Shown in pieces: positions 6,313-31,714 of a stretch of DNA of 32,000 nt. Location of the stretch: the NCBI GenBank assembly GCA_963706795.1, contig OY970170.1, forward strand, positions 1,235,897 through 1,267,896, read 5' to 3'. The first letter of the stretch is position 1; every line of letters begins with the position of its first letter. Origin of the DNA: Candidatus Saccharimonadota bacterium (GTDB lineage: Bacteria > Patescibacteriota > Gracilibacteria > BD1-5 > UBA2023). Under the pieces are notes generated by a model that saw nothing but the letters and a program-made list of their open reading frames with translations, did not search any database and was not told where the DNA came from. A program made the position numbers and the translations under genes.

Positions 6313-7011
6313 TTATTTTGCGAGCCTAAGTGAACCGAGCGATGACATCGTTCCGATCTCGGCTCAGGTAGATTGTGTATCAAAGTGGATATATTCGTCT
6401 CCCCATGCCGTGAGCAAGCGGTCCATTTGAAAGTCGTCGTATTCATCGAGTGAAAGCCCTCGCAGCCTCTCTGTGAGCTGAACTGGATCTTTTGTAATCG
6501 ACAATGCCCAATAAAATTGACCATCATCTTCACCAAGTGGTTCATGAGTCCAATACAGGATTTCAGAAGCATTTTCACCATCAAATGACCGACCTAAAAG
6601 ATTGAGCAAATGATCTCTTTTTTCGATGCCCGTTCCAGGAATCGCATCAATCAGGATGATCCATGCTTCAGCTGAAACCAAATCCATACTGGGTGGTCGA
6701 TCAGCGACAACATATCCGCGTTTAAATACAAGATCCGTGCCATTTATAGCATCCATTTGTTCAAGAGAATGCGCGCTGATATCTGTGAGATCGATACGAT
6801 ATTGCCCGACAATAATCGCTTGGTTATCAACCTGAATATCAACTTTTCAATATACTTCAGCCCAATTTTGTAAAAGCTGCAATATTCGCTGAGACTGAGT
6901 CTCTGGCATTGCCAGAATATTTTCTGTTTGAGCTCATGCGGCAGGCAGATTCATGGGTATCTGCACTCATTCTGAAGTAGGACGTACCGTCTCAAAAGCA
7001 AGATTATTCAT
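6313..7011 (-). CDS. Hypothetical acidic protein (232 aa)
   Basis: Track ORF 6364..6756 extends upstream to ATG 7009-7011 (TGAs at 6847, 6934, 6967) and downstream through TGA 6364-6366 to TAA 6313-6315. No family recognised. Confidence 0.55.
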
Positions 7012-7109
7012 AACAAAAAATGATGAATTCTGATCACTATAGGAATACTAGCAAATAATCAAGAGAAGAGTTTGTCAAATCACCTACTTGCACCACGGAC
7101 AACTTTATA

Positions 7110-7136
7110 AAAATCCCCGACTATGTCGGGGATTTT
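7110..7136. terminator. Intrinsic terminator hairpin (A-tract/T-tract flanked, potentially bidirectional)
   Basis: aaaatccccgac (7110-7121), tat loop, gtcggggatttt (7125-7136): a perfect 12-bp stem. It starts 16 nt downstream of the TGA that closes ORF 7152..7562 on the minus strand. Confidence 0.75.
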
Positions 7137-7151
7137 GTGATGACGAATGGA

Positions 7152-7562
7152 TCAGAGAGAGAAAATTTTCTCAAGCCAGTGCGTCTCTTCCTTATCTTTC
7201 CCCTTGCAATAGGGGCCGTGGATTGTCTTGTAACAACCACCTGAATTTACCTTACGGTTCATGGTGGTGAGTATCCAATCTACGAAGACTATGCCAAGTT
7301 CGGTATCAACAGATTTGACGATCCCAATGGCACGAATACGTATATCAGAACTTCCTTGACCTAGACCCTTTTTGATCGCAATGCAATCATTTTTACGCAC
7401 TTGTGCAATGACTGAATCATACTCAGGATGTTCCCCAAGTTTCCAGCCATTTTGCCAGATACCTGCTTGAATAAAACGTTCGAATTGATCGTCTTTGCCC
7501 CACATTGCGCCAGCTAAAAAGTACTGACGACTTGGTTTGCTATTTGTTTTAGCTAATTCCAT
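7152..7562 (-). CDS. Hypothetical protein (136 aa) whose only plausible end is a TGA codon
   Basis: Clean ORF 'MELAKTNSKPSRQYFLAGAMWGKDDQFERFIQAGIWQNGW...' with no internal TGA. It ends at TGA 7152-7154, followed by the 7110-7136 terminator. Reading TGA as Gly would add about 135 aa antisense to gene 6313..7011 (next TAA at 6744-6746). Confidence 0.55.
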   Translation of the reverse strand: MELAKTNSKPSRQYFLAGAMWGKDDQFERFIQAGIWQNGWKLGEHPEYDSVIAQVRKNDCIAIKKGLGQGSSDIRIRAIGIVKSVDTELGIVFVDWILTTMNRKVNSGGCYKTIHGPYCKGKDKEETHWLEKIFSL

Positions 7563-7665
7563 TTTACTTCCTTAAGTAGACCCTCCGAGGAAACTCATCG
7601 GGTAAAATAATATCTATTGGTATTTCATCCCCACAAAGTTCATAAGGACCAAAAGAGTCTACGAA

Positions 7666-7701
7666 AAATCCCTCCAAAACCAAAGATTTCGAGAGGGATT
7701 T
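7666..7701 (-). terminator. Putative intrinsic terminator after the P-loop gene
   Basis: aaatccctc (7666-7674) pairs with gagggattt (7693-7701), with an 18-nt loop. On the minus strand it overlaps the TAA of 7700..8227 and is followed by TTTCG. Confidence 0.4.
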
Positions 7702-8227
7702 AGGAGAGATTTTTGAGTTTTATTGTGTGGCTAATAAGTTCAAATCCGTTCTCAACAGATGTGATTTCTAAAGTCTTTGATTGAAGGCTAGAAGTAGCTA
7801 TATTTTCCAGAATTCTTGGTAATTGTCGCTTCTTCCAAGTCAGTGTGCGTATCAAAAAACCAATATTGATCGAATTTGCTCCGTGGATATTTAGGTCCTG
7901 TTTATTGCGTTTTTGCTTGAAAAACAAACTCTTCATAGACCTCTTTAAGATGCGGAGAATATTGCCAAGTGGAGATGTATTAATAATCACTATCAAATCC
8001 ACTCGATCTTTCATAGATTTAATGATCGAGCAACTTGCTCATTCAATAATCCAGCTTGATTGCTGTATAGCTTCTTTTTGAAGTAATCAATAATTTGGAT
8101 TCTCAATCCAACCTTCTTGCCATTGGAGCGAATCAAGATGCACAACAGGAATGTTATATGTTTGACTCAGATCGTGTGCAAGCGTAGATTTCCCTGATCA
8201 GGCTGGGCCAGTAATGTATATGCGCAT
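7700..8227 (-). CDS. P-loop NTPase, adenylate-kinase / topology-modulation (FlaR)-like
   Basis: Track ORF 7700..8014 extends upstream through TGAs (8039, 8087, 8198) to ATG 8225-8227: 'MRIYITGPAG-S-GKSTLAHDLSQTYNIPVVHLDSLQW'. TGA 8198-8200 supplies a Walker A glycine (GPAGSGKST). TAA at 7700-7702. Confidence 0.75.
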
Positions 8228-8244: not shown

Positions 8245-9708
8245 TTAATCCCTACTTTCAGTATTTCAAAAGTAGATCTCGTTTGCCTGATTTACTAATC
8301 TCATTTCTTCTTCGGCTGAGTCTTTTATAACTTTTTCTGATTCACGTTTTTGCCTGTTTTGTCGATCCTGTTTTTCTTTGTCGGCAAGCTCTTTTGCTCG
8401 AGTTTCTGTAGCAGAAATATCTTTCAATCGAGCCCCAAGCAAGATAAATTCTTGGACCTTGTTAAATTCAGTATCGAATTTTACTAACTCTTCTTCAATT
8501 TCAGTGAAATTGCCTTTTTTGGCATGTAATTCTTTGATGTGAAGCAAGGCTCATTCGAGTGCGAAGAGCGTAGATGGCAAATGAAAGAGTATAAATCTCA
8601 TATCCCCCGTTTTTTTGGCGTAGGTGGTTGCATTTTCCGTATACTGAGATTTTATCTGAATTCCTCAGAGATTCCTTTCTCTGTCGGCAATTTGAGACGT
8701 CAGGCTCTTTAGCCAGTCTATTTCTTTTTTGAGCACGTCAGCATGTGCATCCATCTGAGCAAAAAGCACTTTTTCTGCAGTATGGAGAGCTTCAAGAGCA
8801 TCTATATCTCGAAGTCGATATATCGTTCGGAAGTCATAGCTAAGTTTGTGGATTTCACTCTGAAGCCCCGTAAGGTCGAATCGGTTTTCTTTTTTATAAA
8901 GTGTTCTGTGTTTGACACTTATCTTGCTGAGTTCTGATTTTTTTGAGTCAAATGTCGACTGGATGCGTATATTAAATACATCCATCATTTCATAGAATCG
9001 TTCGAATCCTGAAAGACGTATGTGGTGAGCTCGTATATTTGCAACAATGAAATCTAGATCATCCACATCAACTGGAGATTCTGTCACAAAGGCTTGTATT
9101 TGTCTGAATTGAAAGCCAATTCGCTGGAGCGAAGACTCAAGCGTTCGTACTTCTGACATGAGCCTATCGGCCTCGTAGAGTTTTTTCGTACGTTTTTCTT
9201 CGTCTTCCTGCCACTCAGTCGCCATCGTATTCAAGAAGTCAGTTACCTCAGCAATATCTTTCTGAAAAGTCGCTTCCCAGTGAGAAAGAGACAAAATTTT
9301 AGCTAAATCCTCTTCTGCATGACCATTAAGACGTGCCAAATACGACTCGATAAGTGGAAAAAGATATCACTGCGGATATCTTGCCCTCTCTGTTTCATAT
9401 CTCTTACCTAGGTCTTTTATCTGATTCTTGAGATCATTTTTTTGCTTGGAGCGAAGGAGTCTTCTTGAGCCTATAAGTCCACCCACAGCAATACCAAAAA
9501 CCGCTGTACCAACTGCGATATCTTTAAAGAGTTCACTTGTATCGTTCTCTTTGTTACTCTCTAAGTGCTCCTGGATTTTTTGTTTCGTCTCATCTTGTAC
9601 AAGAGACAGGTTATCCGGAAGGACTTCATTTGCTGAAGTTACATTCGATCCAAGGGCCATGGCCGAACCTACAAGCACGGACTTCCATCCCGATTGATTC
9701 CTATTCAT
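8245..9708 (-). CDS. Membrane-anchored coiled-coil protein (487 aa), function unknown
   Basis: Track ORFs 9367..9708, 8665..9339 and 8266..8547 share a frame and join through TGAs at 9367, 8665, 8551 and 8266. N-terminal signal/TM region (MNRNQSGWKSVLVGSAMALG; IAVGTAVFGIAVGGLIG), then a long charged, helical sequence. TAA at 8245-8247. Confidence 0.65.
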
Positions 9709-9908: not shown

Positions 9909-10328
9909 ATGAAAAAATTATATACAGGCTTATTGTTCTTTGTGTTGCCATTCTTTGCGTTTGCAGAGACGACGGGTCATATAAGCGACCTCTCAAAGAT
10001 ATACGAAAACACAAGCATTACCTTGCTGAGCGCACTTGCAGTCAGTTTTGTGATCATCACTCTACTCATGCCTGCAATTGTTGGCGGTATCGTGGCAGCA
10101 ATAAGCACGTATCTTCTTCTAGTACCAACCATGGCCGGTGGAATCGTTGCCGTACTGGTTATACTTGTATTTTTTATGGGCTGGGGAATCGCCTGGTTGA
10201 TCCGAAACATGATCAAGCCAAGTAGCTATTCTGGCTCGGATTCTGATGGAAGTATTGACGCTTGCAGTGCTTGGGGATTCAACTCAGGTGACTCTTGGGG
10301 AAACGACTCCAGCGGAGGTATCGATTGA
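9909..10328 (+). CDS. Small multi-TM membrane protein with Gly/Ser/Asp-rich tail (139 aa), apparently ending on TGA
   Basis: Signal-like MKKLYTGLLFFVLPFFAFA, several TM stretches, tail 'GSDSDGSIDACSAWGFNSGDSWGNDSSGGID'. No internal TGA. The ORF closes at TGA 10326-10328, 26 nt before a strong terminator. No TAA/TAG occurs in any forward frame before the hairpin. Confidence 0.55.
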   Translation: MKKLYTGLLFFVLPFFAFAETTGHISDLSKIYENTSITLLSALAVSFVIITLLMPAIVGGIVAAISTYLLLVPTMAGGIVAVLVILVFFMGWGIAWLIRNMIKPSSYSGSDSDGSIDACSAWGFNSGDSWGNDSSGGID

Positions 10329-10354
10329 ATGAACTTACAGAAAGGAGAAATCAA

Positions 10355-10384
10355 AAACAGAAGGTGAAAACCTTCTGTTTTTTT
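10355..10384. terminator. Bidirectional intrinsic terminator
   Basis: aaacagaagg (10355-10364), tgaaaa loop, ccttctgttt (10371-10380), then tttt. It lies between convergent genes 9909..10328 (+) and 10400..10912 (-). Confidence 0.8.
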
Positions 10385-10399
10385 GTGATACGATATTGC

Positions 10400-10912
10400 C
10401 TATTCAGCTTTTTTTCACTGTGCTCGTGCGATAGCATCCATGGCCTGATTATGGCTATTTTGGAGAATGTTTTCGAGTTTTTGATGAGTTTGTTCTTCGC
10501 GCTCTAAAGCAAACTTTTCATACGCTGCATACATATGCGAAATAAAGGCATGTACCACAACACGAGCCTGATCAGGAGCGAGCTTTGCTCGACCAAGGGC
10601 ATCAGTATTATTCAAAATCGCGCCCATTACATGTGACATATGAATAGGGAGCGCCAAATTTTGATGCGTGACCATTGCTCGAATAAGACCATTCATATGC
10701 TCATTCTCAAAGAAACCAAGAACTGTCTCTCTGTCTAAAGCATCTTTTTTACTTCTTCCATTCCCAGGAAGCATTGGGTATCTTGCTCCCGCAATAAATG
10801 CCTTCTTTTCGGCTGCAAATACTGTGGCGATGTTTTCTTTGAGATTGTTTTCAATCTCGGCGAGAGCCATTGCTTCGTTACCATGAAGATCCGGAGTCTG
10901 TGATGCTGACAT
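10400..10912 (-). CDS. Hypothetical His-rich protein (170 aa), last gene of the Fur/NAS/COG0523 operon
   Basis: Track ORF 10415..10978 reads through TGA 10415-10417 to TAG 10400-10402. The likely start is ATG 10910-10912 (MSASQTPDLHG...). Several His clusters (THQNLALPIHMSHVMG, VVVHAFISHMY). Confidence 0.5.
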
Positions 10913-10987: not shown

Positions 10988-12508
10988 CTACGCGAGATAG
11001 TTCTCCCACTTCGCAATTCGGCCATCAGTTTCAAAATATTCAAATTCTGCCCATTTGGACATTACTTCCTTATCCATGGAGAGTTTTACAATGGCTCCGT
11101 CAGACTGGAGTAATTCATCGATAGTTTTTGTGGCACATGAAGGATCGAAGAGATCAATCCCATGTTTCTCCAAAAGAATTTTTACAAGGAAATCGAGCCG
11201 CTTATGACAGATATATGTTGGGCTTTTTGAATGCTCTCTGAGCTCGGCTACGGTCTCAACTTTTTTTGGAGTTCTCGCATATGCACGACGCTTGTATTCG
11301 AGCCAGCTGTAGGGATCTGGATATTTCATGGATTCACCGAGCGCTTTTTGTTCCGCCTGGATACGAGCAATTTCGAGCCAAGAAGCATCAGAAGCCCCAT
11401 CCTGAAAGCGTGATTGAATCATTGATATTTTTGCGTCCATAGCCATATACGCGTGATACTGACTCACAAGCTTATCTACGCGCTCCTCGGATAATGCCAC
11501 AAATGCCTCAATAGTATCTGGAATCATAGGAGAAGAAATTGATTGGATTGTGTGTGTAATTGAATGGTCACTCACTTGCTCAAAAATGAGTATTTGCGAA
11601 GGCGTCATGGGGCTCACAGTTATAATATTGAGATATGGAGCCACGCTTGTGTGCTTGGAATAGACGAAACTTCCGTGAACAAAATCAAATTCGGTTTGCC
11701 CGATTACACCTTTTGCACGCATGACATTTGTTCCAAGAGACGCGATGGCCAGATCAAGATCCTGCCGAGAAAAATTCGCATGCAACTCAAAGCTTCTCGT
11801 GAATACTGGCGCCTTTTTTGTAGCTGATCTGGTATTCATATGTGAGGTCGGAGCAGATGCACTTCTCAAAAAACTCGGCTTTGATTCGGGCTTTTTAGGG
11901 AGATGATCGAGTAGTCACAAAAGGGATTCGTAATCCTGCTCATGTGGATGTGATTCGAAGGATTCTTGACTCGATCAATCGATCTTTCTGAGTTGTACGA
12001 TCGGAGCAGATGGAGCGAGTCGACCTATCCATTGCAGAACATTGTCCGAATTCCCCTCAGTCCACGTGAGTCCGACGATATCCGCAGTCCTCATCTGAGT
12101 ATCCATCACCACTCTCTCCGCCTCAGAACGAAGTGGAAAATGCTCGACATCCGAGAGCACAATCGTCGTCACACGAAACCCAGTTCGCTTCATAAGAGCA
12201 AGAATGGCAGGTCATTCGGCAATTCCACTCGGCTCAACAATCAGGAGTTCTGAGGAACCCTTCGCTTGATGCAGGGCATTGGAGAGAGATTCCATGTCTT
12301 CGCAGCAGATACACCCCTCGGTGAGCGCGGTCACGTCAGCATCACTCAAACGAGCCGCATCGATATTAATTGATCCAACGTCATTGACGATAATTTTGGT
12401 TTTCTGCTTAAATCGCGAAAGCATCCATCGGATTAGTGACGTTTTTCATGATCCAAGTGGCCCAAGGACCAATAGGGCTCGCGAAGTATCGGGACTGTGC
12501 ATTGTCAT
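10988..12508 (-). CDS. COG0523-family (CobW/ZigA/YeiR-like) metallochaperone GTPase with about 200-aa extra C-terminal region
   Basis: Track ORFs 12212..12424, 11975..12193 and 10988..11869 are in one frame, joined by TGAs at 12446, 12212, 11975 and 11915. 'LVLGPLGS-G-KTSLI' Walker A (TGA 12446-12448 is the Gly of GKT); 'TEGCICCEDMESL' (GCxCC); 'LLIVEPSGIAEG'; CobW_C-like 'VMRAKGVIGQTEFDFVHGSF'. ATG 12506-12508, TAG 10988-10990. Confidence 0.85.
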
Positions 12509-17630: not shown

Positions 17631-20600
17631 CTATTTTGAAAGCTCTTGAGCTAATAATTCGCTCTGTTCAATCACACGATCAGCCTCAATCTTTGCGAGG
17701 TCTGGTGGATACCCATAGCGCATGAGCACTTTTTTTACCGTGAGACGAAGTTGAGCGCGAACATCATCACGTTTGTTCCAGTCGACTGTAGCATTCTTTC
17801 GAATGATATCTACGATCATATGGATCAATTCCTTCATCTTATGATCCTCCAGAAATTCTGTCGATGTGTTCTGCGAAAGTATAGAATAAAATGCATATTC
17901 TTCGGGGGTGAGACCAATCTCCTTTGCTCGCATATCCTCAATCCTCATATCGCGTGCAATCTGTGAAAGTTCCTCGATAATCTGTGCTGTATCGAGTTGA
18001 TTGTTATGGTAACGCTTAATCACATTTCCAAGCATTTCAGAGAACTTTTTCCCTTGAGCAACATTCTTTTGTTTGCGAACCTTCACCTCCTCAGTGAGAA
18101 GTTTTTTAAGGAGTTCAAAAGCAAGATTTTTGTGCTCCATGTTTTTCACTTCTAATAGAAATTCCTCTGACAGAATCTCAAGTGAAGGAGCTTTGATTCC
18201 TGCTGCTTCAAAAATATCTACCACTCAATCCGAAGACAAAGCTTCTTCGACAATCTGTCGGATCGCCGTATTTACCTCTGCATCACTTTTTCAACCAGTA
18301 GGTGAGAATTTATTGATTCGTGATTTAATAGCCTGAAAGAAGGCAATATGATCCTTGATTTGTTCCGCCGCAACACTCGGTACAGCCATTACAAAGAGTT
18401 TTGAAAGCGCAGACACTTCAGCGAGGAATCGATTCTGTGTATCTTCACTTCGAAGGATGAAGTTTTGTGCAGCGAGCAACACATGAAGCTTCTTTCAGGT
18501 TTCAGCAGTGAAATACGACTGATAATCGAATCCGTGAAACATCTGAGAAACAATCTCGAATTTTGTTCGCATCCCAGCTATTACCTCCGCAATATCCAAT
18601 ACTGCTTGCCCCTGTCACCCATTGTCCGTATACGTCGACATCGCATTTCGCAGATCTTGTCCGATACCGATATAATCAACAATCAATCATCCTGGCTTAT
18701 CTTTGTAAACGCGGTTCACACGTGCAATTGCCTGCATAAGGTTTGCACCTTCCATTTTCTTGTCGATGTACATCGTATGGAGCGACGGTGCGTCAAATCC
18801 TGTCAGCCACATGGACTGTACGATCACGAGTTGCAGGGAATCATTCGGATCTTTGAGCCTAAGGGCTAATGCCTTGCGCTCATCCTTGGTAGTGTGATGT
18901 GGCTGGAAATCTTCAGGATCATCTGTTGAGCTCGTCATCACGATCTTCAAGAAACCCTTCGTAAGATCCTGATCATGCCATTCAGGTCTGAGTTTCACAA
19001 TCTCAGTATATAGGTTCACTGCGATCTGTCGTGTCATACACACGATCATCCCCTTTCCTTCGAAGATAGCCTGACGCGCTTCAAAGTGATCAACGATATC
19101 CTTCGCAATATCCCTCAATCTATCTGGATGCCCCACGATACTATCGATCTGTGCATTGCGTTTTTTTGCTTTCTCTTTCTGCTCAGGTGTTGCATCTTCG
19201 ATCTCATCGATCGCTATATCGATCTGAGCAACAGCCGCATCGTTCATCTTGATCTTCACAAGTCGACTCTCATAACTAATCGGCACAGTTGCGCCATCTT
19301 GAACCGCCTGTGCGATATCGTAGATATCCACATATCCACCAAATACTGCAGGTGTAGACTTATCTTCCTTCTCGATCGGAGTACCCGTGAATCCTATGAA
19401 AGAAGCCTGAGGAAGCGCATCTCTCATATACTTTGCATTCCCGTACTTGATCTCGCCATCAAGATCAACCTTTCCCGTGAAACCATACTGACTTCGATGC
19501 GCCTCATCTGCAACCACTACAACGTTTGAACGATCCGTAAGAACCTCGAAAGAATTCTGCCCATCTTCAGGATAGAATTTCTGAATTGTCGTGAAAATAA
19601 TCCCACCACCTGATACTTTGAGAAGCTCCTTCAAATGCGCACGATTATTCGCCTGGACTGGTTTTTGTCGCAGGAGGGAGACACAGTTCCCAAATGTTTG
19701 AAATAGCTGTTCATCGAGATCATTACGATCCGTGAGTATCACGATCGTAGGATTCTTCATCGCAGGTTCTACAACGAGTCTTCCAGCATAGAAGACCATG
19801 GAGAGTGACTTCCCAGATCATTGAGTATGCCACACAACCCCAATCTTCTTGTCACCATCTTCTGCAGTGGCACGCAAGGTTTCCTTCACTGCCTTCTCCA
19901 TCGCGTAATACTGATGATACGCAGCAACTTTTTTGATCTTGATTACAGAGAGCACTCCCGTTTCTTTATTCTTTACTTCTTCAGCTTCAAATACTGTATT
20001 GTATCTGATCAATTCGAGCAGAGTTTTCTTCTCGAACATTCGCTCCGCCAAGATCTGAAGCTCAGGCAATACCCCATTTTCCTTCTTCTCAGGTGATTTC
20101 CACACGAGATAACGTGAGAACGGTGCAGAGACACTCGACACTCGTGCATCGAGCCCGTCAGAGATCACGCAAAGTGCATTGTAATAGAACACAGAAGGAA
20201 CCGCCTTCTTGTAGTTCTGAATCTGTGTGAAAGCTCGCTCCAATGTAGCATCCTCATCCATTGTATTCTTGAGCTCAACCACGACAAGTGGGAGTCAATT
20301 CACAAACAACACAACATCCAGTCGCTTTTCATTGTTATTTTCCTTTACTACGAACTGATTCACCACACAGAAGTGGTTATTCTCTGGATTCACAAAATCC
20401 ACCAAGTTCACACTCACCCCCTTCGACTGCCCATCCGTGAAATACTCCACCACTACCCCATCCGTTAACATCTGATGAAATACCTCGTTGTTCATCATTA
20501 GATCATCCGAATCAAAGCGACGAATCTTTGAAAGTGCTTCGATTCGAGCAGATTCTGGGATGTGAGGATTGAGACGGTCGATAGATGTAGTTAGTACCGT

Positions 20601-20744
20601 ATCTAAAATAACGCCGTCAAAACTCGAACGCATAGGGGTTGAGCTGTATGGAGAGATATCTGGACCATAGAAATACTCGTAGCCCTGAGATTTGAGGAGA
20701 TCTACGAGGTTTTGTTCGATGGAAGATTCGGTAAGGTGGGGCAT
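17631..20744 (-). CDS. hsdR: Type I restriction enzyme, R subunit (1037 aa)
   Basis: Five track ORFs (20295..20744, 19818..20282, 18687..19799, 18291..18482, 17631..18224) share one frame. Joins: '[17 protein letters not shown]' (TGA 20295) and '[18 protein letters not shown]' (TGA 19818, helicase motif I). Also '[11 protein letters not shown]' (DEAH) and a C-terminal '[21 protein letters not shown]' region. 7 in-frame TGAs. TAG 17631-17633. Confidence 0.95.
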
Positions 20745-20748
20745 AGAC

Positions 20749-21300
20749 TTATATATGAAGTTCTTGAGGTAAGAATCTATTTATTTCATTATCTGACCAA
20801 GTAAATTCTTCATCTCTATTCTGTTTTCATAACAAAGATAACTGAGCCTCAGTGTAATCAGTATATGTTGTTTGTGAGGATAGTCAGACAATAATTTGAT
20901 ACTGTTCCTGATATAAATCTCTTCTTCAAATCGTTTCATCTTCGCTCAAACCACCTATAATATCAACTATAAAGTTTTTATATTTATCTCTCAAGTTTAG
21001 AAATTGCAGTGCAATTTTTTTAAACTCCTGTGCTCTTTGTTCTATAGAAAATTCTTTCTGGAGGAATAAGAAAATTATCTCAGAAACCGTTAATGCAACA
21101 GATACACCTCCAAAAATATTACTGTCTGGAAATTTAATCTGTAAAATAAGGAATACTAGAATCAAGAAAACATCAATGATGTTTACCCACTTAATCAATC
21201 ATTGAACTTTTTCTAGTCTATCACACGCTTTTTCATAAACCTTGTGATTAAAGACGCATTGAGCAAATTGCTGTCTTACCACTGAAAGATTTCTATTCAT
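20749..21300 (-). CDS. SLATT-like two-transmembrane effector protein (183 aa)
   Basis: ATG 21298-21300. N-terminal helix, two adjacent TM helices (LIKWVNIIDVFLILVFLILQI; IFGGVSVALTVSEIIFLFL), then a helical tail '...YTDYTEAQLSLLGKQNRDEEFTWSDNEINRFLP'. 4 in-frame TGAs. TAA 20749-20751, 4 nt before the hsdR ATG. The assignment rests on architecture plus the SMODS neighbour. Confidence 0.55.
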
Positions 21301-21311
21301 ATTTTAGAAGA

Positions 21312-22190
21312 TTATCATGTAAATTTTGATCAAAATATTTCCCTCCATTTTTGATTAGCAGAATATTCCTTTGCCTCCGATTCATACTGCATAGCCTCTA
21401 TCGCTAAGTTATATGCCAATTTTGCCTTGTACTCAAACTTTCATCCCCTCCATACGTACTGACCACTTCAAGGTGCAAGCCAGTAAGATTTATCCTCATC
21501 CTGTTCTTTAAGGAATTTAAAGAAATCCCTTACCATCCAATCATAATACAAATAAGATTTATCCTTTTGCGCCCAATTCTTCATAAAATGATAGCATAAT
21601 GTATCAATCAAAAGCCCTCACATTGGTACATTCCAATAATCTTTCCATACCCTAGTAATTCTGCATAGTCTTTTTAAATTAAAATTCCAGTCTTCATTCT
21701 TCTCCCTAATTTCCTTAATCTCAGGTTTTGGATTTGTCTTCTTCCAAGAACCTCAATCGTTTGAATCAGGAAAAGTATAACTATCGTCAGTTTTAATAAA
21801 GGCAGGTACTATTTCAAAACAGATTCAATCATTCCAGTTGATTCAAATAACTTGTCCATCCCCTTTTATATGTGTTGTAGGATATGTTTTCTGTAATGAT
21901 GATCTAATTGCTTGCAACAATGCAGACTGTCAGTTTCCAGTATAATTGTTATACGTTTCATACAGTGAATCTGGAAGTTGAAAAATTACATCAATGTCAC
22001 TTACATGTATGTCTGTATCTCTACCATAAGATCATACGTATAGACTATGGCTATATTCTGATTCTGTGGACCAAAAATCTTTATTTAATCTCTTTGTGAT
22101 AGATCTATAGCGTACTGAAATCGTATCTATATTATCAATATCGATACGAATATTATCGCAGAAATTTTCAAATTTAGTTGTAATAGACAT
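21312..22190 (-). CDS. SMODS / CD-NTase-like nucleotidyltransferase (292 aa)
   Basis: This is the only frame free of TAA/TAG across 21315..22193; I enumerated every tta/cta. 10 in-frame TGAs, so the track shows no ORF here. Pol-beta NTase core 'YVGSYGRDTDIHVSDIDVIFQLP', 'GICFEIVPAF', 'PDSNDGGSWKKTNPKPEIKEI', 'RLCRITRVWK'. ATG 22188-22190, TAA 21312-21314. Confidence 0.75.
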
Positions 22191-22203
22191 AGATTAACAA
22201 GAA

Positions 22204-23436
22204 CTAAATTAAAGATGGTAAAATTTCTCCGCTCATCAACCTTGGCAATAGCTCATCGCGAGTTCTCGAGAGCAATGCTACTTGAGCTAAGTTATTATAG
22301 ATTTTTCGAAAAATTGGCTTAACTTTCTCATCAAATCCCCTTACTCTCTCAATATTTGGAACAAGCACCTCAAGTTCTTTTATCATGGTCGAATTAATCG
22401 CTGTGACTATCGATGAAGTACTTCATAGTGAGTTGAAATCCAGTTTCTGAAGATAGCAATATATAAATTCGGTACTCAATGCAGAGTTGCCCTTGATTTT
22501 CAGGTGAGCAATTGCTTCATTTGAGAGCATCTCTTCGGTGGTAATCGTTAGTTTACCGACAGTCATTTTGAAACTCAATATCGTTGTATTGATAGGAATT
22601 ACTGAGATATTGAATTTCTTAATTGCCTCATCTATCAGATATTCTGAAGTTTCAAAAATATATGTTTTACTATTTCCGATATCCTTTATAGAAATCCACT
22701 TTTTCCCTGTTGGAGATTTTGAAAACCACTCCGGTTGAATACGAGGAGGAGTTCTTCAGATTGTAATATCAAACTCCGTCCCTAATTTTCCTACTCTCCA
22801 ACCCTCCGGCAACTCATCATCTACGCCATACTTCCCAAATAACTCCTGAAAAATTGTCTGCGCAGTTTTCTCAAGTGTCTCATTTTGCTCTCGAAGAAGT
22901 TCGATCTTATCATCGAAACTTGAAAGTATTTGAGCGATTGCTTGTTGTTCAGGGAGAGAAGGAAGAAGAATAGGATATTCAGTAATTTGTCTCTGGCTTA
23001 TATGCGGGATAGATGTTCCAGTATGAACCTTTGCTACATAGGATTCAAAATTCTTATTTAGAATGAGATGTGCTATGAAATGCTGATCTGAGATTCATGG
23101 TTTCCTTCTTAAACATGCTACTCGCTGAGCCAATATTAGTGGCAGTTCTTTTTCTTGAACCATAGACCTATTTTTTCCAACCTTTGATCCATCCATTCAA
23201 ATTACTATGTCATCTTTTTGTAAGAAACACTTTTCCAATCCATCCGTAGAATGATTCCAATACTTCACAATATCCCATCTAAGAAATCATTCCGAGACAT
23301 TTTCTCATCTTACGACTCTCAAATTTCAATTCGAATCATATAAATTTCACTTGAATGATTCTCACGTAAAAATATCCACAACCTTCCCCAAAGTCGTCTC
23401 CATCCACCCTTCAGGAATCATTTTTTCATTTCTCAT
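22204..23436 (-). CDS. hsdS: Type I restriction enzyme, S (specificity) subunit (410 aa)
   Basis: The frame is open from 23496 to TAG 22204, with 9 in-frame TGAs. 'IPEGWMETTLGKVVDIFTG', 'LAQRVACLRRK', 'HTGTSIPHISQRQI', central 'LPEQQAIAQILSSFDDKIELLREQNETLEKTAQTIFQELF', second TRD 'LPEGWRVGKLG...', C-terminal 'RTRDELLPRLMSGEI'. Confidence 0.9.
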
Positions 23437-23437
23437 A

Positions 23438-23908
23438 CTACTTTTGAGGATTACTCATTTGATTAAGTACGCTATCCACCGCCTTTCATGGTAAGTTTAT
23501 ATCTCCTGTGTTAGTTCATGGAGTGTTTACTTTCTCAGCAATGTTCTCATAATCTGGCGTAACTTTATAATTTCCTCGATTACTCCTATAAAGCTTCCAA
23601 TTCTGTGCCCATTCAATCGCAGTATCTCGGAAACTTTTGTCTATCTTACCGTAATTTACAAGTGTCTCTGAGCCTCAAAATCAGATAGTCATAAATGTTA
23701 CGAGATAGGCCACAGTAATCACCCCGACTTTGTTCTTAAACCATTCAACTTTTGTAGTCAGAAGATATGTCAGAAAAACGAGCAAACAAGCGATTCCGAT
23801 TGCTATAAGCCAGAAGATGATCGTGAATACCGCATAAATAATCACCGCGAGGATTACAATTCCTATCACTCATTGTTCTACGAATCTTTCTTTTCATTTT
23901 CGACCCAT
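23438..23908 (-). CDS. Small membrane protein (156 aa; 2 N-terminal TM helices plus soluble tail), unknown function
   Basis: Track ORF 23681..23869 extends to ATG 23906-23908 and through TGAs (23681, 23675, 23516, 23486) to TAG 23438-23440, 1 nt before the hsdS ATG. Confidence 0.55.
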
Positions 23909-23952
23909 ACTACTTTTGGTTATCAGACAAAGGTTTATGCACTTCAAATAAT

Positions 23953-25089
23953 TTATTTCTCCAGGATATCAAAATAAGACCTAAATACGAAGAGTCGATT
24001 TCTTTTGTTGCCAGTGATTTCCACAAGTATGCCAAGCTTCACAAAATCTTGTATGAGATCGTTTGTCGCTTTTGGGGAGAGATCTGTAATCAATTGCACG
24101 TTTCGCGAAGATACGATGGGCTTCTCGAAAAGTTTCTCAAGCAAGGTATGTGCGCTTTGCATCTTCCTTCCAAGAGTGGGAAGTGAATTTTTGGTATGAT
24201 AGTCTTTCAGATCTAGGACTGCCTTGAGCGAAAGCGTTGCTTCATTTGCAGTTTGTTCCACTCACTCAAGGAAGAAAAGCACCCAAGAGAGAAGATCGTT
24301 TTTCTCTCTAACCCAGGTGAGCTTGTCGTAGTAGAGGGATTTGTTCTTTTCGAAGAAATCAGATACATACAAGAGTGGTCTATGGAGTATACCGTTACTT
24401 ACTAGATAGAGCGGTATCATGAGTCTCCCAGTTCTGCCGTTCCCATCGAGAAATGGGTGTATAGTCTCGAACTGATAGTGAGCTATGGCAATCTTTATGA
24501 GATGAGGAAGTCACACGGCGTCATTATGGAGGAATTTCTCTAGATCAGACATGAGATCACTTACGTGTTCTTGACTCGGGGGTATAAATTTTGCATCAGA
24601 CAGACCCGCACCGCCAATCCAATTTTGACTCGTTCTGAATTCTCAGGGACTCTTATCCCTTCCTCGCACATGAGAGAGAAGGATCTTGTGGATTGATTTA
24701 ATCAAGCGGTTTGAGAGTGGGATATTCTCAAGTTCTTCGATAGCAAAATTGAGAGATTCACGATATTGAATAGTTTCCCTCCAGTCATCCCGTTTTTCTG
24801 GTTGGATATCTCATTCATCAGAAAAAGCCTCTTCAATATTGGTTTTTGTTCCCTCTATTCGGCTTGATGTGACCGCTTCCTTCATGACATATGATTGAAG
24901 GAAAAGTTCGATATTTGGGACAAATTTTGAAAAGGAATTGAGCTCACCAAGCTTAAATGATGCGGATTCAAGTTTCTTCTGAAGAAGAGGATGTGAAAAA
25001 GTCCATTCATGATTTATGGTTTCAGGAAGGAAGTACTTATACTGATAAGCATTTCTCCAAACTCCAGATGTAAAGGTCTCGATCTGCAT
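23953..25089 (-). CDS. Fic/DOC family protein (378 aa)
   Basis: Track ORFs 24811..25089 and 23953..24261 are in frame. The translated gap contains the Fic motif '[12 protein letters not shown]', preceded by '[14 protein letters not shown]'. N-terminal Fic_N-like 'SSRIEGTKT', wHTH-like C-terminus. 4 in-frame TGAs. TAA 23953-23955. Confidence 0.9.
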
Positions 25090-25175
25090 AGAAGTAAATT
25101 ATATATTTCTATAATTTAGTTTATCAGTTAAAAGTAAAATTACAATATCCATATTTTACTTTTGAACGTTATCCA

Positions 25176-26690
25176 CTAAAGCTCAAATCCTATCTTCGCA
25201 AGCTGTCTTTTGATCTCTTCATCGAGTTCTTTCTCTCGTGCCATCTGCTCACCGAGCTTAGTGGTGAGTTCTTTCATCTTTACTTCAAATGGAATCCCAT
25301 CGTCAACTGCGTCTACAATCCCAACATATCGACCTGGAGTAAGTACAAATCCATGTTTCTCGATGTCAGCGAGGCTTGCAGACTTACAATATCCTTTCTG
25401 ATCTTCGTAGGTATTCCCTTTTCTCCAGTTGTGATACGTTTCAGCGATCTTATTCATATGATCTTCGGAGAGATCTCTATGAACACGATCCTTCATATAT
25501 CCCATCTCAGAAGCATCGATGAAAAGCGTTTCACCTTTGCGCTCTGTTCTCTCACGTCGGAGAAACCAGATACAGGCTGGGATACCAGTATTGTAGAAAA
25601 GTTGTTTTGGAAGCGCGACGATACAGTCTACGAGGTCTGCAAGGACGAGCTTTTTGCGGATTTCTCCTTCTCCACTTGTATTAGATGAGAGTGAACCGTT
25701 AGCAAGAACGGTCGCCATGACTCCATGAGGCGCAAGGTGGTAAAGCATATGTTGAATCCATCCGAAATTCGCATTCCCTGAGGGTGGAACTCCGTATTTC
25801 CAGCGCGCATCGTCTTGGAGGATATCGACTCCCCACTCTGATTGATTGAAGGGCGGATTTGCGATGATAAAGTCAGCCTTGAGATCAGGATGCTCATCAC
25901 GAAGAAAAGAGCCCTCTGTATTCCAACGCACAAACTGCGAGTTGATATTACGGATTGCTAGATTCATCTTTGAGAGTTTCCAGGTTGTTTGGTTACTCTC
26001 TTGGCCGTAGATAGTGATATCTTTGATATTTCCCTGGTGTTCTTTGATGAATTTCTCACTCATTATGAACATACCACCGGAACCACAGGCTGGGTCGTAA
26101 ACACGTCCTTTGTATGGCTCGATCATCTCGACCATGAGTTTAACAATGGCTTTTGGCGTGTAAAACTGACCACCCTTTTTTCCTTCGGCATTTGCGAATT
26201 CACCGAGGAAATATTCATAAACTCGACCGAGGAGGTCTTTTGTATTGGCATTTGCAGCCTTGAGTTCGATGTCAGAGATTACGTCGATAAGTTCACCTAG
26301 AGAGGTTTTGTCGAGATTGGGCTTACCGTAGACTTTGGATAGTACATTGCGAAGCTCCGAGTTCTCTTTCTCTATGGACTCCATCGCATCGTCGAGATCC
26401 ACTCCAATCGTTGGAAGTTTTGCTCGTGCATGGAGTGTTTTCCAACGAGCATTTTCTGGCACGAAGAATACATTTTTTGCCTTGTACTCATCACGGTCCT
26501 CTGGATCAGAAAATTCATCTGCCTCAAGTTCGTCGTAGAGCTCTTGAAAACTATCAGAAATATACTTGAGGAAGACAAGTCCAAGAACGACGTTTTTGTA
26601 TTCTGCTGCGTCGATGTTTTTACGAAGCTTGTCAGCAGTCTTGAAGAGTTGTGCTTCGAAATTATTATTGGCTTGATTCTGCGCTGCCAT
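25176..26690 (-). CDS. hsdM: Type I restriction enzyme, M (N6-adenine methyltransferase) subunit (504 aa)
   Basis: Intact in the track. 'VVLGLVFLKYISDSF' (HsdM_N), 'GQFYTPKAIVKLMVEMI', 'VYDPACGSGGMF' (SAM motif I), 'FIIANPPFN' (motif IV NPPF). TAG stop. No in-frame TGA at all. Confidence 0.95.
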   Translation of the reverse strand: MAAQNQANNNFEAQLFKTADKLRKNIDAAEYKNVVLGLVFLKYISDSFQELYDELEADEFSDPEDRDEYKAKNVFFVPENARWKTLHARAKLPTIGVDLDDAMESIEKENSELRNVLSKVYGKPNLDKTSLGELIDVISDIELKAANANTKDLLGRVYEYFLGEFANAEGKKGGQFYTPKAIVKLMVEMIEPYKGRVYDPACGSGGMFIMSEKFIKEHQGNIKDITIYGQESNQTTWKLSKMNLAIRNINSQFVRWNTEGSFLRDEHPDLKADFIIANPPFNQSEWGVDILQDDARWKYGVPPSGNANFGWIQHMLYHLAPHGVMATVLANGSLSSNTSGEGEIRKKLVLADLVDCIVALPKQLFYNTGIPACIWFLRRERTERKGETLFIDASEMGYMKDRVHRDLSEDHMNKIAETYHNWRKGNTYEDQKGYCKSASLADIEKHGFVLTPGRYVGIVDAVDDGIPFEVKMKELTTKLGEQMAREKELDEEIKRQLAKIGFEL

Positions 26691-28847: not shown

Positions 28848-28924
28848 TGGTGGACCGGGAGGGGCTCGAACCCTCGACCTAAAGATTAAGAGTCTTCCGC
28901 TCTAACCAACTGAGCTACCGATCC
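28848..28924 (-). tRNA. tRNA-Lys (anticodon CUU), CCA encoded
   Basis: Minus-strand read: GGATCGG-TA-GCTC-AGTTGGTTA-GAGC-G-GAAGA-CTCTTAA-TCTTT-AGGTC-GAGGG-TTCGAGC-CCCTC-CCGGTCC-A-CCA. 7-bp acceptor stem (one G-U), T-loop TTCGAGC, 7-nt anticodon loop with CTT at positions 34-36. Confidence 0.9.
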
Positions 28925-28997
28925 AAGGTGATGTGCTTGCGACATAGGCTCACAAAGCTCGCGAAATATATCGAAAAAAAGTGCGAAATCAAATCTT

Positions 28998-29717
28998 TTA
29001 TGGAGAAGATTGCTTTCCGCGGAGGAGTGAGAGAATAACGCGGTCAATCTGGTACTTGGTGATAGCGTTAGTGGAGGCGATATCGGTGATGGCTTTGGCG
29101 AGGATATCAAAGAAATCTGGGGGCAATTCTCCTGTGCGACGGCGGGCGGTGTCTTGGAGGGCGAAGAGGAGCTCGAGGGCTTCGTCGCGCTTGAATGTTT
29201 TGGTTGCGTAGTATTCGGCGATGGCGGGCTTGGAGAGGGTGATGAGGCCGAGGGCAAGCTCACGGGTATCAGGGCTGATATCGCGGGCAACATCGGTGAT
29301 CTCGAGGAATTGGACGCGTGAGGCTATGGTTTCGAGGAGGGCTTCGCGGGACTCGAGGGTGAGGAGGATGAGTGTGCGAGCAGGGACATCTTCAAATGTT
29401 TTGAGGAGGGCGTTGGCAGCTTCTTTGCTCATTTCGTCGACTTGGGAGACGATGATTACTTGGTAGGGGCCAGATGAGCGAATAGTTGCTCGGGTGATGA
29501 TTTCACGGACTTCTTCGACTTTGTAGGAGTCTTCGCGTGGGGCAAAAAAGGCGATGTCGGGGTGGGCAATCTCGGGAAGTTCTTCAAAAAATACTCGATG
29601 ATTAAAGAGTACTTGGATGATTTTTTCGGTCTGGGACTCGCTTACGACGATGGGTGCGACAGAGCCACCTGCTGTGAAGCGGTCGAGGACGGATGCGAGA
29701 CTTGGAGAGAGTGACAA
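28998..29717 (-). CDS. holB: DNA polymerase III delta-prime (HolB)-like clamp-loader subunit
   Basis: 'EAANALLKTFEDVPARTLILLTLESREALLETIASRVQFLEI' matches the clamp-loader sensor-1/SRC region. TTG start at 29715-29717 (in-frame TAG just upstream), TAA 28998-29000. Visibly GC-richer than the island; no in-frame TGA. Confidence 0.75.
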   Translation of the reverse strand: MSLSPSLASVLDRFTAGGSVAPIVVSESQTEKIIQVLFNHRVFFEELPEIAHPDIAFFAPREDSYKVEEVREIITRATIRSSGPYQVIIVSQVDEMSKEAANALLKTFEDVPARTLILLTLESREALLETIASRVQFLEITDVARDISPDTRELALGLITLSKPAIAEYYATKTFKRDEALELLFALQDTARRRTGELPPDFFDILAKAITDIASTNAITKYQIDRVILSLLRGKQSSP

Positions 29718-29741
29718 ATTGGGCTTTATTTCGGACTATTT

Positions 29742-30869
29742 GTGCCTATTCTATGGCAAACATCGCCCGTGAAAAGTCTCATTTCTTTGTATATCGAATA
29801 TCAGGCCCAGATTATTGCTCTGTCGGCAGTTTTTTTGGCGCTTATTTTGTGGAGGTTTTCGTTTGTGCGAAGGATTGGATATTTCTTTGCCAACCTTCCA
29901 AACAAGCTTTTGGCATTACTGATGCTGTTAGTGCTCGTGCCGGCAATTGGTGGAGCATTGTATTATATCTTTGCGCTGAATACTGGATCACTTGAAGTGC
30001 AGGTTTCTGGAGGCTCGGATGTGACTATCGGGTTGAAGCGATCTGATGTAAATGCATTTGAGCGGGTCTGTGCGGATATTTGTCGATTTGAGAATATTCC
30101 CGCCGGAAGCTACGATGTTATGTATTCCTGATCTGGCATTGTCGAGACGCGAGAAGTTGCCACCATCAAGCGTGGTGAAAATCTCAGGATTTCATTTGTG
30201 CCCGCCGGTAAAATCGCCCTGGAGCCAACGGATCGAGTCACCGCAACTGGCAGTGTGAGTGATGATGACAACTACGTCTTTGCTGGAGCATTCCGTGGGA
30301 AAAACTACAATATCAAACTCTCCCCTTTTGGTTTTGGAGAAGCGAGTGGCAGCGGACAAAATACGCTCTATGAGGCAAATTGACTCGTTGGATATCTGAC
30401 AGGATCAATTCAATATGGATATTTTGTAACGACTACAGCGGACAAAAATCTCCATGTGCTCGATCTTGTTTCGCTTGCGGTCCATGATTTTGGTTCGCCG
30501 GATGAGAGTGTCGCGCTCAGTATCAAATCGACTGGTAAAAAAGATATGGCTGTGCTCGAGACCAAATCTTGATCTTATCTCGTAAATCTCGGTGATAATA
30601 CGCTCACTCCCCTTGCGCTCTATGATGACCTCGCTCTCAGTGCGCGCGGGACACTCATCGGGCTTGTGCGCGGAGAAAGCGCGACAAAAAGATCGCTCCT
30701 TAATCTCGATACGAGATCATGAGACATCCTCATCGATACAACACGTATAGATAGTAAGCGAGTACTGATGGACGGACTCTCGGCGATTGCGCATATCCAC
30801 ACGATTGGTGGCAAATTTATGGTCGAATATATCGACGGAAGCTGGGCAAATCTTAATGGAATCAATTAA
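29742..30869 (+). CDS. Membrane-anchored protein with beta-rich extracytoplasmic region (375 aa), unknown function
   Basis: Track ORFs 29742..30131 and 30198..30383 are in frame. Reading through TGAs at 30129, 30381, 30570 and 30720 reaches TAA 30867-30869. Two N-terminal TM helices. GTG start at 29742 is uncertain. The stop overlaps the next ATG (TAATG). Confidence 0.6.
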
Positions 30870-31714
30870 TGGCAACCAAAAAAGTCTACTGGAACACGAT
30901 TGCACAAATTGGTGGGAAGATCTCAACGGCGCTCATCTCGATCTTCCTCGTCAAGATCCTGACGAACTATCTCGATCTCGAGGGCTACGGACTCTATTCA
31001 AAGATATATAATTATCTCTCAATCTTTTCGGTAATTGCGGATCTTGGGCTCTATACAGTGACTGTTCGAGAGATTTCAGCCCACAAAGACGATCCCGAAA
31101 AAGTCCGAAATATCGCCGGAAATATCCTCACGCTCCGCACTGGAATGGGACTTGCGATCATCGTGCTTTCACTCGCGATGGGACTCATATTGCCAGGATA
31201 CAACTCAAAAGTCGCACTGATTGGAATTTTGATCGCGGGGATTTTTACACTCTTTGGGCTCGTAAATAGCTCGATCATGTCGATGCTTCAGGCCTATCTT
31301 AAGACGGAGTTTTCATTTATTTCGACTACTGCTGGTAAGGTTGTAAATCTCTTGGGAGTGCTCGCCGTGGTCTTTATGATCTTACCGAGACCCTTCCCTG
31401 CTGTAAACGAATCGATTGCCTTTGCCTTGATCATGGTGGCGGGACTCCTTGGAAATATCGTGATGACTGCGATGGTGTATTGGTATAGTCTGAAGGTCGA
31501 AAAAGTCGGATTTCGATTTGATCCGGTATTTATGAAGTCGATCCTGCGTTCGTCTCTGCCATACGGGCTCGCACTTCGCATCATTAACACCATTTGTTCT
31601 TTCTCATATTCGGTATATTTTCCATGAGCGGCTTTATTTCTTAGATCAAGCCACGCAGTGGCTGACTTTTGATCCAATTTTGTGTATACATATGTGCCAT
31701 CAGTAGCTGATTAA
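30869..31714 (+). CDS. MOP/Wzx-family polysaccharide flippase, apparently 3'-truncated (about 236 of an expected 400+ aa)
   Basis: 'MATKKVYWNTIAQIGGKISTALISIFLVKILTNYL...' with multiple TM helices up to '...ILRSSLPYGLAL'. After about 31577 the sequence loses TM character, crosses TGA 31625 and stops at TAA 31712-31714. Composition also changes there. Confidence 0.6.

Follow-up and report, generated by a model that had tools for sequence, protein, structure and literature searches.

A gene family that closes on TGA ahead of terminator-like hairpins in genomes that read TGA as glycine

How does the translation of a gene end when the only stop codon at its natural end is one that the genome reads as glycine? 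The question is raised by an open reading frame (ORF) at 7152..7562, on the minus strand of a stretch of 32,000 nucleotides (hereafter the window) from Candidatus Saccharimonadota bacterium, of the BD1-5 group of Gracilibacteria (assembly GCA_963706795.1, contig OY970170.1, positions 1,235,897 to 1,267,896 of the forward strand). A preliminary description of this DNA, made from the letters alone, reported that the ORF can only close on TGA, immediately before an intrinsic terminator, in a genome that uses translation table 25 (code 25, TGA = Gly). It offered three explanations: a recent import from a standard-code donor that is now mis-terminated, an indel that hides the real stop, or a context-dependent role of TGA in termination. 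We find that the TGA-end pattern is real and reproducible across assemblies, and that it is part of a wider, previously undescribed set of genes with standard punctuation in genomes where TGA means glycine. The features at issue are listed here by their coordinates in the window.

7152..7562, minus strand: ORF of 136 aa, TGA-free, with TGA as apparent stop; predicted stand-alone EVE/YTH-like protein of the PUA superfamily (ORF call, C-termini of homologues, predicted structure).
7567..7573, minus strand: Shine-Dalgarno-like AAGGAAG, ending 4 nt upstream of the ATG of ORF 7152..7562 (read from the sequence).
7152..7154, minus strand: terminal TGA at the conserved C-terminus of the family, in a column that is TGA or TAA across all homologues (homologue alignments).
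7109..7136, minus strand: intrinsic-terminator-like hairpin, in which 7136..7125 pairs with 7121..7110 around the loop ATA, with five T at 7113..7109 (folding and terminator scan).
6744..7151, minus strand: frame that would be read through if TGA is Gly, 135 codons to the TAA at 6746..6744, overlapping 6313..7011 out of frame (frame reading).
6313..7011, minus strand: downstream gene, 232 aa, with four in-frame TGA and a TAA end (ORF call).
7662..7699, minus strand: hairpin and T-run (AAATCCCTC ... GAGGGATTTTT) directly 3' of the TAA of the upstream gene 7700..8227 (read from the sequence).

The ORF starts at the ATG 7562..7560 and, as first described, it is clean, has no internal TGA and closes on the TGA 7154..7152. 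After a spacer of 15 nt comes a hairpin with a perfect 12-bp stem, AAAATCCCCGAC-ATA-GTCGGGGATTTT (7136..7110), and its T-tract. The 66-nt stretch that holds the hairpin folds with -18.7 kcal/mol (z = -4.05), and none of 200 shuffled sequences folds equally well. Sequence and folding thus place a stable hairpin followed by a U-tract 3' of the ORF, at 7136..7109, which is the make-up of an intrinsic terminator. A simple terminator scan skipped this hairpin, since its T-tract is taken up into the A-U pairs of the lower stem; our own scan recovered it. Since hairpins flank the ORF on both sides (7662..7699 and 7109..7136), it forms a self-contained unit. The frame beyond the TGA runs to the TAA 6746..6744, about 135 codons on, as had been read earlier. 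If TGA were always sense, there would be no TAA or TAG from 7562 to 6746, with the terminator inside this frame, and the terminated transcript would lack a stop codon. The extension 6744..7151 has no Pfam match. It had been called antisense to the gene 6313..7011; that gene lies on the same strand and is overlapped out of frame.

The other genes of the window show the code of this genome and confirm the initial reading of TGA as glycine. ORFs of 1081, 1050 and 723 aa are open only when TGA is read through. In HsdR (17631..20744, minus strand), in-frame TGA codons align with the glycine of “vnGlplv” and with the glycine of the Walker A motif “htGsgk” in the HsdR of EcoR124, i.e., at conserved positions of a conserved protein. 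Outside the ORF under study, sense TGA is present in 23 genes of the window, where it makes up 1.2% of the codons and 19% of the Gly codons; single genes carry 7 to 12 internal TGA. The only tRNA in the window is a tRNA-Lys(CUU) at 28848..28924 (minus strand). We found no signal of tRNA-Gly(UCA), of release factors or of SmpB with ARAGORN and with tblastn searches using release factor and SmpB motifs, which covered the window and the relatives’ loci; genes for tmRNA or an ArfB-type rescue factor are likewise missing from this stretch and these loci. The gene of release factor 2 (RF2), prfB, was reported absent from all BD1-5 genomes available in 2019 (PMC6851277), and a BD1-5 metaproteome contained no peptides unique to a database built with UGA as stop (PMC4032931).

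Homologues show where the protein really ends. All 13 homologues retrieved by a single-sequence search end at the same aligned residue, within the motif W-x-x-x-[IV]-F-[SC]-[LI], and in a DNA alignment of eleven loci the codon after this residue is T-[G/A]-A throughout. Across the sequenced loci of the family, the terminal codon is TGA or TAA in 17 out of 17 cases and never a sense codon. A profile search extended the family to 347 homologues, nearly all of 120-135 aa, including a protein of Ottowia; a Victivallales genome also has a copy, and a scan of metagenomes contributed one short family locus only. We looked for homologues in code-25 genomes with the long C-terminal extension, and none of the homologues carries it. 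The sequence 3' of the TGA is not conserved as protein, and the hairpin conserved between two relatives (loci L001 and L002, see below) stands in different frames relative to the TGA. A conserved C-terminal extension was therefore ruled out on these frames and on the lack of a Pfam match. A selenocysteine reading of the TGA was ruled out as well, given that no Rfam match to a selenocysteine insertion element was found, the hairpin runs out into a T-tract, protein conservation reaches no further than the TGA, and homologues have TAA in place of the latter.

These alignments also dispose of the proposed indel: the C-terminal alignment is free of gaps in all homologues, residue for residue, and every locus continues with TGA or TAA, which refutes it. 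More generally, an error of sequencing or assembly, or a hidden indel, that masks a TAA or TAG is extremely improbable, as the same TGA column is found in eight independent assemblies besides that of the window (L001, L002, L006, L007, L008, L014, L015 and L016) and the alignment has no gap up to the last residue.

The arrangement itself recurs in these relatives, whose loci we designate L001 to L016. The homologue closes on TGA, with a hairpin 15-25 nt downstream, in L001, L002 (and its duplicate L003), L006, L007, L008 and L014, all of which share the UUCG-loop hairpin CCCGGAC-TTCG-GTCCGGG; L008 belongs to CAYZVC010000001.1 (784 kb). L016, clearly a code-25 genome, has TGA with a different hairpin, as does L015, which we did not count as code 25 (its contig is in the range of 2.8-3.6 kb). 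TGA plus terminator is thus found in seven other assemblies in which TGA is glycine (L001, L002, L006, L007, L008, L014 and L016), and the layout occurs in at least four different terminator contexts. TAA closes the homologue in L004, L005, L009, L010, L011, L012 and L013. After the TGA, the next TAA or TAG comes 135 codons downstream in the window and 107, 342, 51, 100, 54 and 36 codons downstream in relatives; only L016 has one close by, a TAG five codons on. The nearby TAA or TAG that backs the TGA stops of code-11-compatible genes is therefore not part of the general pattern.

The GC-rich contigs among the relatives also read TGA as glycine. Their genes for a Zip transporter have TGA where relatives have GGN, and in-frame TGA stands at Gly positions of MgsA and of the M3 peptidase. 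Two further contigs, L012 and L013 (GC 56-61%, in the range of 2.8-3.6 kb), are syntenic with this code-25 clade, with 70-76% nucleotide identity in the Zip gene. Their identified genes (Zip, pyrG and the EVE-like gene) have no in-frame TGA and their pyrG closes on TGA, on contigs too short to fix the code. From these two contigs, the boundary between TGA as stop and TGA as glycine may lie inside a narrow clade. The UUCG terminator element (L001 10423..10446) is identical in L002, L006, L007, L008, L012, L013 and L014. It is kept across lineages about one silent substitution per site apart, with a variable spacer before it, which is unusually strong conservation for a terminator.

The gene has been under purifying selection in this state. 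The ratio of nonsynonymous to synonymous substitution rates (dN/dS) is 0.07-0.2 within the TGA-ended clade, where dS reaches 0.8-1.0, and about 0.11-0.13 between the copy of the window and its relatives. Such low ratios at such divergence indicate that the gene has been functional for a long time with its TGA end. Transfer-messenger RNA (tmRNA) tagging of non-stop products usually leads to their proteolysis. One might therefore suppose that the gene was dead on arrival, i.e., mis-terminated, its product tagged and degraded, a pseudogene in waiting without a recognised stop and with a junk extension that overlaps the next gene. This is quite improbable given the selection just described, the intact ORF with all invariant residues of the family, and the upkeep of the TGA-end layout in different terminator contexts. 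Hence, the part of the preliminary description that saw a recent import and a pseudogene is not supported as to “recent” and “pseudogene”, in view of the seven other code-25 assemblies and the selection on the gene. Its claim of an import fares better.

None of the 17 sequenced family loci has an in-frame TGA, as in code-11-compatible mobile genes, and the ORF of the window has 14 GGN codons and no TGA. In L004, L005 and L009, which are code-25 contigs of 25% GC, TGA makes up 66-75% of the Gly codons, whereas the homologue has 13-14 GGN and no TGA (P about 1e-8 each). In the low-GC hosts the homologue has a GC content of 37-42% (host 24%) and a GC content at third codon positions (GC3) of 0.26-0.38 (host 0.11-0.14); in L016, the gene has 46% GC in a host of 36%. 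The genes that flank the ORF in the window differ from those in the other loci. The family is widespread, with its 347 homologues, TGA-free everywhere and compositionally foreign in the 25%-GC hosts; it therefore looks like an import that keeps standard-code punctuation. The import does not trace to phages. There were no relatives of the family in 2.9 million viral contigs, and the contigs of its hosts are cellular, with lengths from 135 kb to 1.27 Mb, so that a phage origin was ruled out.

The same end could have arisen without import, in a resident gene whose TAA mutated to TGA (a transition, and a stop loss under code 25) and was then fixed as nearly neutral. This would fit the ORF of the window, whose GC (0.426) and GC3 (0.397) both match the window, and it would fit the TAA of seven homologues, including those of L012 and L013, which share the terminator hairpin of the TGA-ended clade. 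Yet a resident gene would be expected to use TGA for glycine as its host does, in 19% of cases, and this one does so in none of 14, within a family that is TGA-free in every host. The foreign composition in low-GC hosts and the dissimilar flanking genes further argue against a resident origin, which we regard as unlikely.

The layout is not restricted to this family. The window encodes a second gene of the kind:

9909..10328, plus strand: TGA-ended, TGA-free gene of 139 aa, with a GGGAGG Shine-Dalgarno sequence, a signal-peptide-like N-terminus and hydrophobic segments; TGA at 10326..10328 (sequence).
10353..10382, no strand assigned: bidirectional terminator hairpin between two convergent genes, at a distance of 24 nt from the TGA of 9909..10328 and of 17 nt from the TAG of 10400..10912 (terminator scan).

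Read-through of 9909..10328 would be open for 224 codons, antisense to 10400..10912 and 10988..12508. We found no homologues of this gene in 5.8 billion proteins, so its C-terminus is set only by the Shine-Dalgarno sequence, the terminator and the overlap with the convergent gene. The two TGA-ended genes of the window have together 29 GGN codons and no TGA (P about 0.002). Because of this bias, and because 13 out of 13 first-round homologues end at the same residue, the TGA-ended arrangement of ORF 7152..7562 exceeds chance.

In the relatives, two more genes end in this way. The first is dapD (396 aa; L001 7090..8280), which in L001, L006, L007 and L014 closes on TGA, with a hairpin 21-22 nt further on; its homology to solved DapD structures reaches about 26 residues before the terminal TGA. 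The second is a 751-aa gene of unknown function (L001 12394..14649, minus strand), for which L001 and L008 have a terminal TGA followed by a hairpin after 15-16 nt. The L006 orthologue has TAA at the very position of this TGA. Such a difference between close relatives could reflect a stop loss in a resident gene; it is also what one would see if TAA and TGA were interchangeable stops.

Genes that end on TGA also avoid it internally. The three TGA-ended genes of L001 have 104 Gly codons, none of which is TGA, and in the other thirteen genes of this locus TGA makes up 14.7% of the Gly codons (P = 6e-8). When we compared L001 with L006 at conserved glycines, a GGN codon of L001 was replaced by TGA in 18 of 116 positions of ordinary genes and in none of 99 positions of TGA-ended genes (Fisher P = 8e-6), although the third positions of GGN codons had turned over just as much in the latter. 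Inheritance from a donor thus does not by itself account for the absence of TGA, which is being maintained. Counted by gene family, the association is based on few cases: TGA ends occur in three of five TGA-free families and in none of eleven TGA-using families (P = 0.018). The nucleotide after the terminal TGA (+4) varies (T, A, C, G) and overlaps the distribution for internal TGA; no distinctive nucleotide context of terminal versus internal TGA was seen in this small sample of terminal cases.

A further irregularity concerns the ordinary genes of the window. TGA is found within the last eight codons of seven of 23 genes that end on TAA or TAG, with 2.2 expected (P = 0.005). In these tails 8 of 17 Gly codons are TGA, whereas its share in gene bodies is 19% (P = 0.009). 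We set the tail length with the data already in view; P is ≤ 0.015 for tails of 5, 8 and 10 codons. The seven genes are all on the minus strand, end at 8245, 10400, 12514, 14820, 17134, 21312 and 27402, and have their TGA one to seven codons before the stop; gene 21312..22190, for example, ends ACA-TGA-TAA. These near-terminal TGA could be former TGA stops, or they could mark stops lost by a change from TAA to TGA, with a back-up stop close by as rescue. If they are the footprint of repeated losses, they would speak for the resident origin considered above; if they are former stops, for a stop role of TGA. Aligning the GNAT protein and the nucleotidyltransferase to PDB structures, as a check on whether such TGA are former stops, did not resolve the last residues. 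The enrichment is absent in the low-GC code-25 loci and in L001, and so it is possibly specific to the genome of the window or an effect of small samples.

How, then, would translation of such genes end? The most probable account combines import with tolerated read-through. The gene would have been acquired horizontally as a self-contained cassette of Shine-Dalgarno sequence, ORF, stop and terminator, in standard-code punctuation, i.e., with a TGA stop and no sense TGA. In a host where TGA is glycine, the TGA 7154..7152 would be decoded as Gly, leaving no recognised stop at the natural end of the gene. Ribosomes would translate about 14 further codons and so enter the terminator hairpin. Where the transcript has been terminated, they would reach the 3' end of the RNA and be freed by rescue that does not depend on a stop codon, and on read-through transcripts they would continue to the TAA 6746..6744. 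The intrinsic terminator would in practice replace the stop codon, and the short unstructured tail would be tolerated. From the sequence, we infer that Gly decoding at this site, the position of the transcript end and this route of ribosome release are the most likely ones. Read-through and rescue are favoured because prfB is reported absent (PMC6851277) and no peptides with UGA as stop were seen (PMC4032931). The strong constraint within the TGA-ended clade indicates that the gene works despite its TGA. The TAG five codons after the TGA in L016 would give the kind of short read-through that this account expects to be harmless. As a whole, the proposal that TGA is read as Gly, that ribosomes run into the terminator, and that the transcript end and ribosome rescue finish translation has, in our judgement, about equal weight for and against it.

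Significant observations are left unexplained by import and tolerated read-through, and they weigh against it. The TGA has persisted through a tree with a length of about 1.5 silent substitutions per site; neutral evolution would predict such retention at about 0.01 for this gene and, for dapD, at about 0.07. A Gly codon at the start of a junk tail should drift, and yet no sense codon is seen in the terminal column, which holds TGA or TAA throughout. In the 751-aa gene, TAA (L006) and TGA (L001, L008) are swapped between orthologues as if these were synonymous stops. Simple read-through does not explain why TGA-ended genes never gain an internal TGA. Nor is any selection for back-up stops apparent: except in L016, the frames of the TGA-ended loci stay open for 36-342 codons. 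A product rescued by tmRNA is normally tagged to be degraded, an awkward fate for that of a housekeeping gene such as dapD.

Most of these observations lean towards a genuine stop role, close to the context-dependent termination of the preliminary description. UGA would be decoded ambiguously: most genes would use it internally as glycine, and a subset of mRNAs would have it as a stop at their 3' end, giving two classes of punctuation; as a general reading of the data we consider this rather unlikely. Such ambiguity would call for a retained RF2 or RF2-like factor that competes with tRNA-Gly(UCA), or for conditional availability of the tRNA. The points in favour are the restriction of the terminal codon to TGA and TAA over a dS of about 1, the interchange of the two in the 751-aa gene, the freedom from TGA of TGA-ended genes both in L001 and in the window, the lack of any gain of TGA over time, the missing back-up stops, and the excess of TGA near the ends of other window genes. 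The contigs L012 and L013, with no sense TGA, would moreover place the change of code phylogenetically close. Against it stand the reported absence of prfB from the BD1-5 genomes then available (PMC6851277) and the metaproteome (PMC4032931). Genes with 7-12 internal TGA would need near-complete read-through at each of them. Few families are behind the gene-level association, and nothing distinctive was seen in the context of terminal TGA. We also know of no bacterial mechanism for position-dependent recognition of stops. The corresponding picture for the code-25 clade of mid to high GC, with most genes using TGA as glycine and a minority kept TGA-free by selection and ended on TGA before a terminator, with real or conditional termination at UGA, is accordingly one that we put forward tentatively, as a minority possibility.

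The nearest published case is that of code-11-compatible phages, whose predicted hosts are code-25 Gracilibacteria and Absconditabacteria, and which avoid in-frame TGA and back their TGA stops closely with TAA or TAG (Liu et al. 2023, PMC10746230). The genes studied here resemble those of the phages in having no in-frame TGA, in sometimes still using TGA as a stop, and in residing in a host where TGA is glycine. They differ in being chromosomal and inherited under purifying selection rather than carried on a phage genome. They also differ in that the back-up stop is mostly absent and the intrinsic terminator comes first. An ending of translation at a hairpin is reportedly known from arfA of E. 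coli (Garza-Sanchez and Chadani, both 2011, are said to have described it), where an in-frame hairpin truncates the mRNA and translation ends at the 3' end of the RNA and needs rescue. The likeness is that translation would here, too, end without stop codon at an RNA end defined by a hairpin. There is no relation in sequence or function, and non-stop ArfA is a regulatory sensor of tmRNA activity, whereas here the missing stop would be a by-product of the code.

Stops with dual meaning are found in eukaryotes with fully or partly reassigned stop codons, ciliates and trypanosomatids such as Condylostoma and Blastocrithidia (PMC12153298). As in these, the meaning of one codon would depend on its place, sense within genes and stop at mRNA 3' ends. 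Their mechanism uses eukaryotic release factors and proximity to the poly(A) tail and the 3' untranslated region, and, unlike the ciliate pattern, the TGA-ended genes here hold no sense TGA at all. To our knowledge, dual-meaning stop codons have not been described in bacteria. Hodgkinia and Eggerthellaceae are lineages for which an ambiguous-intermediate stage of UGA reassignment (the Schultz-Yarus model) has been discussed (PMC13462651). The presence of both sense TGA and apparent TGA stops in one genome, and contigs such as L012 and L013 without sense TGA, are reminiscent of this stage. In the window, however, TGA already makes up 19% of the Gly codons, and the joint presence of RF2 and tRNA-Gly(UCA) would be hypothetical.

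As to what the gene encodes, the protein of ORF 7152..7562 had no match to a Pfam-A family (E ≤ 0.01) or to NCBIfam or PADLOC models, and so it does not match the curated EVE, YTH or ASCH models. An AlphaFold model built from the family alignment has a predicted local distance difference test score (pLDDT) of 90.1 and a predicted template modelling score (pTM) of 0.84. Its best Foldseek matches are the EVE proteins PH1033 and MJECL36, YTH domains such as that of YTHDF2, and the EVE domain of VcaM4I, a modification-dependent endonuclease (probability about 1.0, template modelling scores 0.45-0.54), with 2p5d and 2hd9 among the PDB entries in the top matches. The predicted model has the PUA-like beta-barrel fold, and on this model the product is a stand-alone EVE/YTH-like domain protein. 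It is probably a reader of a modified nucleic-acid base, with a putative ligand. The predicted fold and the size of about 130 aa match EVE, YTH and PUA-like readers, and, as with EVE-type readers, restriction-modification genes lie nearby in L005 and a type I system lies 10 kb away in the window. Unlike such readers, it has no profile match, and its identity to the structural matches is 12-18%. One family member, P0119, has 255 aa and includes an HNH nuclease domain (PF01844) as a fusion partner; this supports the view that the family's domain serves restriction by recognising modified DNA.

The type I restriction-modification locus of the window (17631..26690, minus strand) is interrupted by extra genes:

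20749..21300, minus strand: 183-aa protein (ORF).
21312..22190, minus strand: nucleotidyltransferase with CD-NTase-like PDB matches (PDB matches).
23438..23908, minus strand: small membrane protein (ORF).
23953..25089, minus strand: Fic-domain protein with the motif HPFxDGNGRxGR (motif).

Its HsdM (25176..26690, minus strand, 504 aa) has 35 GGN and no TGA and ends on TAG, whereas its partners use TGA (7 in HsdR, 9 in HsdS); it is thus one more gene without TGA in an operon that otherwise uses this codon. Elsewhere in the window, the region 28886..31244 has a raised GC content (0.51), a GC skew of +0.31 at 29001..30000 and long table-25 ORFs on both strands (28890..30869, plus; 29928..31244, minus).

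These genes matter for annotation, since table-25 gene calls yield at such loci false extensions of 135 to 340 codons and spurious overlaps. Either outcome of the question bears on horizontal gene transfer across the barriers set by genetic codes, and on the engineering and containment of recoded organisms. If translation does end by rescue, bacteria would finish the translation of ordinary and even housekeeping genes without a stop codon, the terminator and the rescue together making up the full stop. If TGA has a stop role, UGA would not be fully reassigned in these lineages, and a cellular organism would then present an ambiguous intermediate that is still alive, or else a genetic code that depends on conditions. 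Whether the old stops vanish first (codon capture) or the codon is read in two ways for a time (ambiguous intermediate) is a point on which models of codon reassignment differ. Should RF2 and tRNA-Gly(UCA) coexist here, these bacteria would be a direct illustration of the latter.

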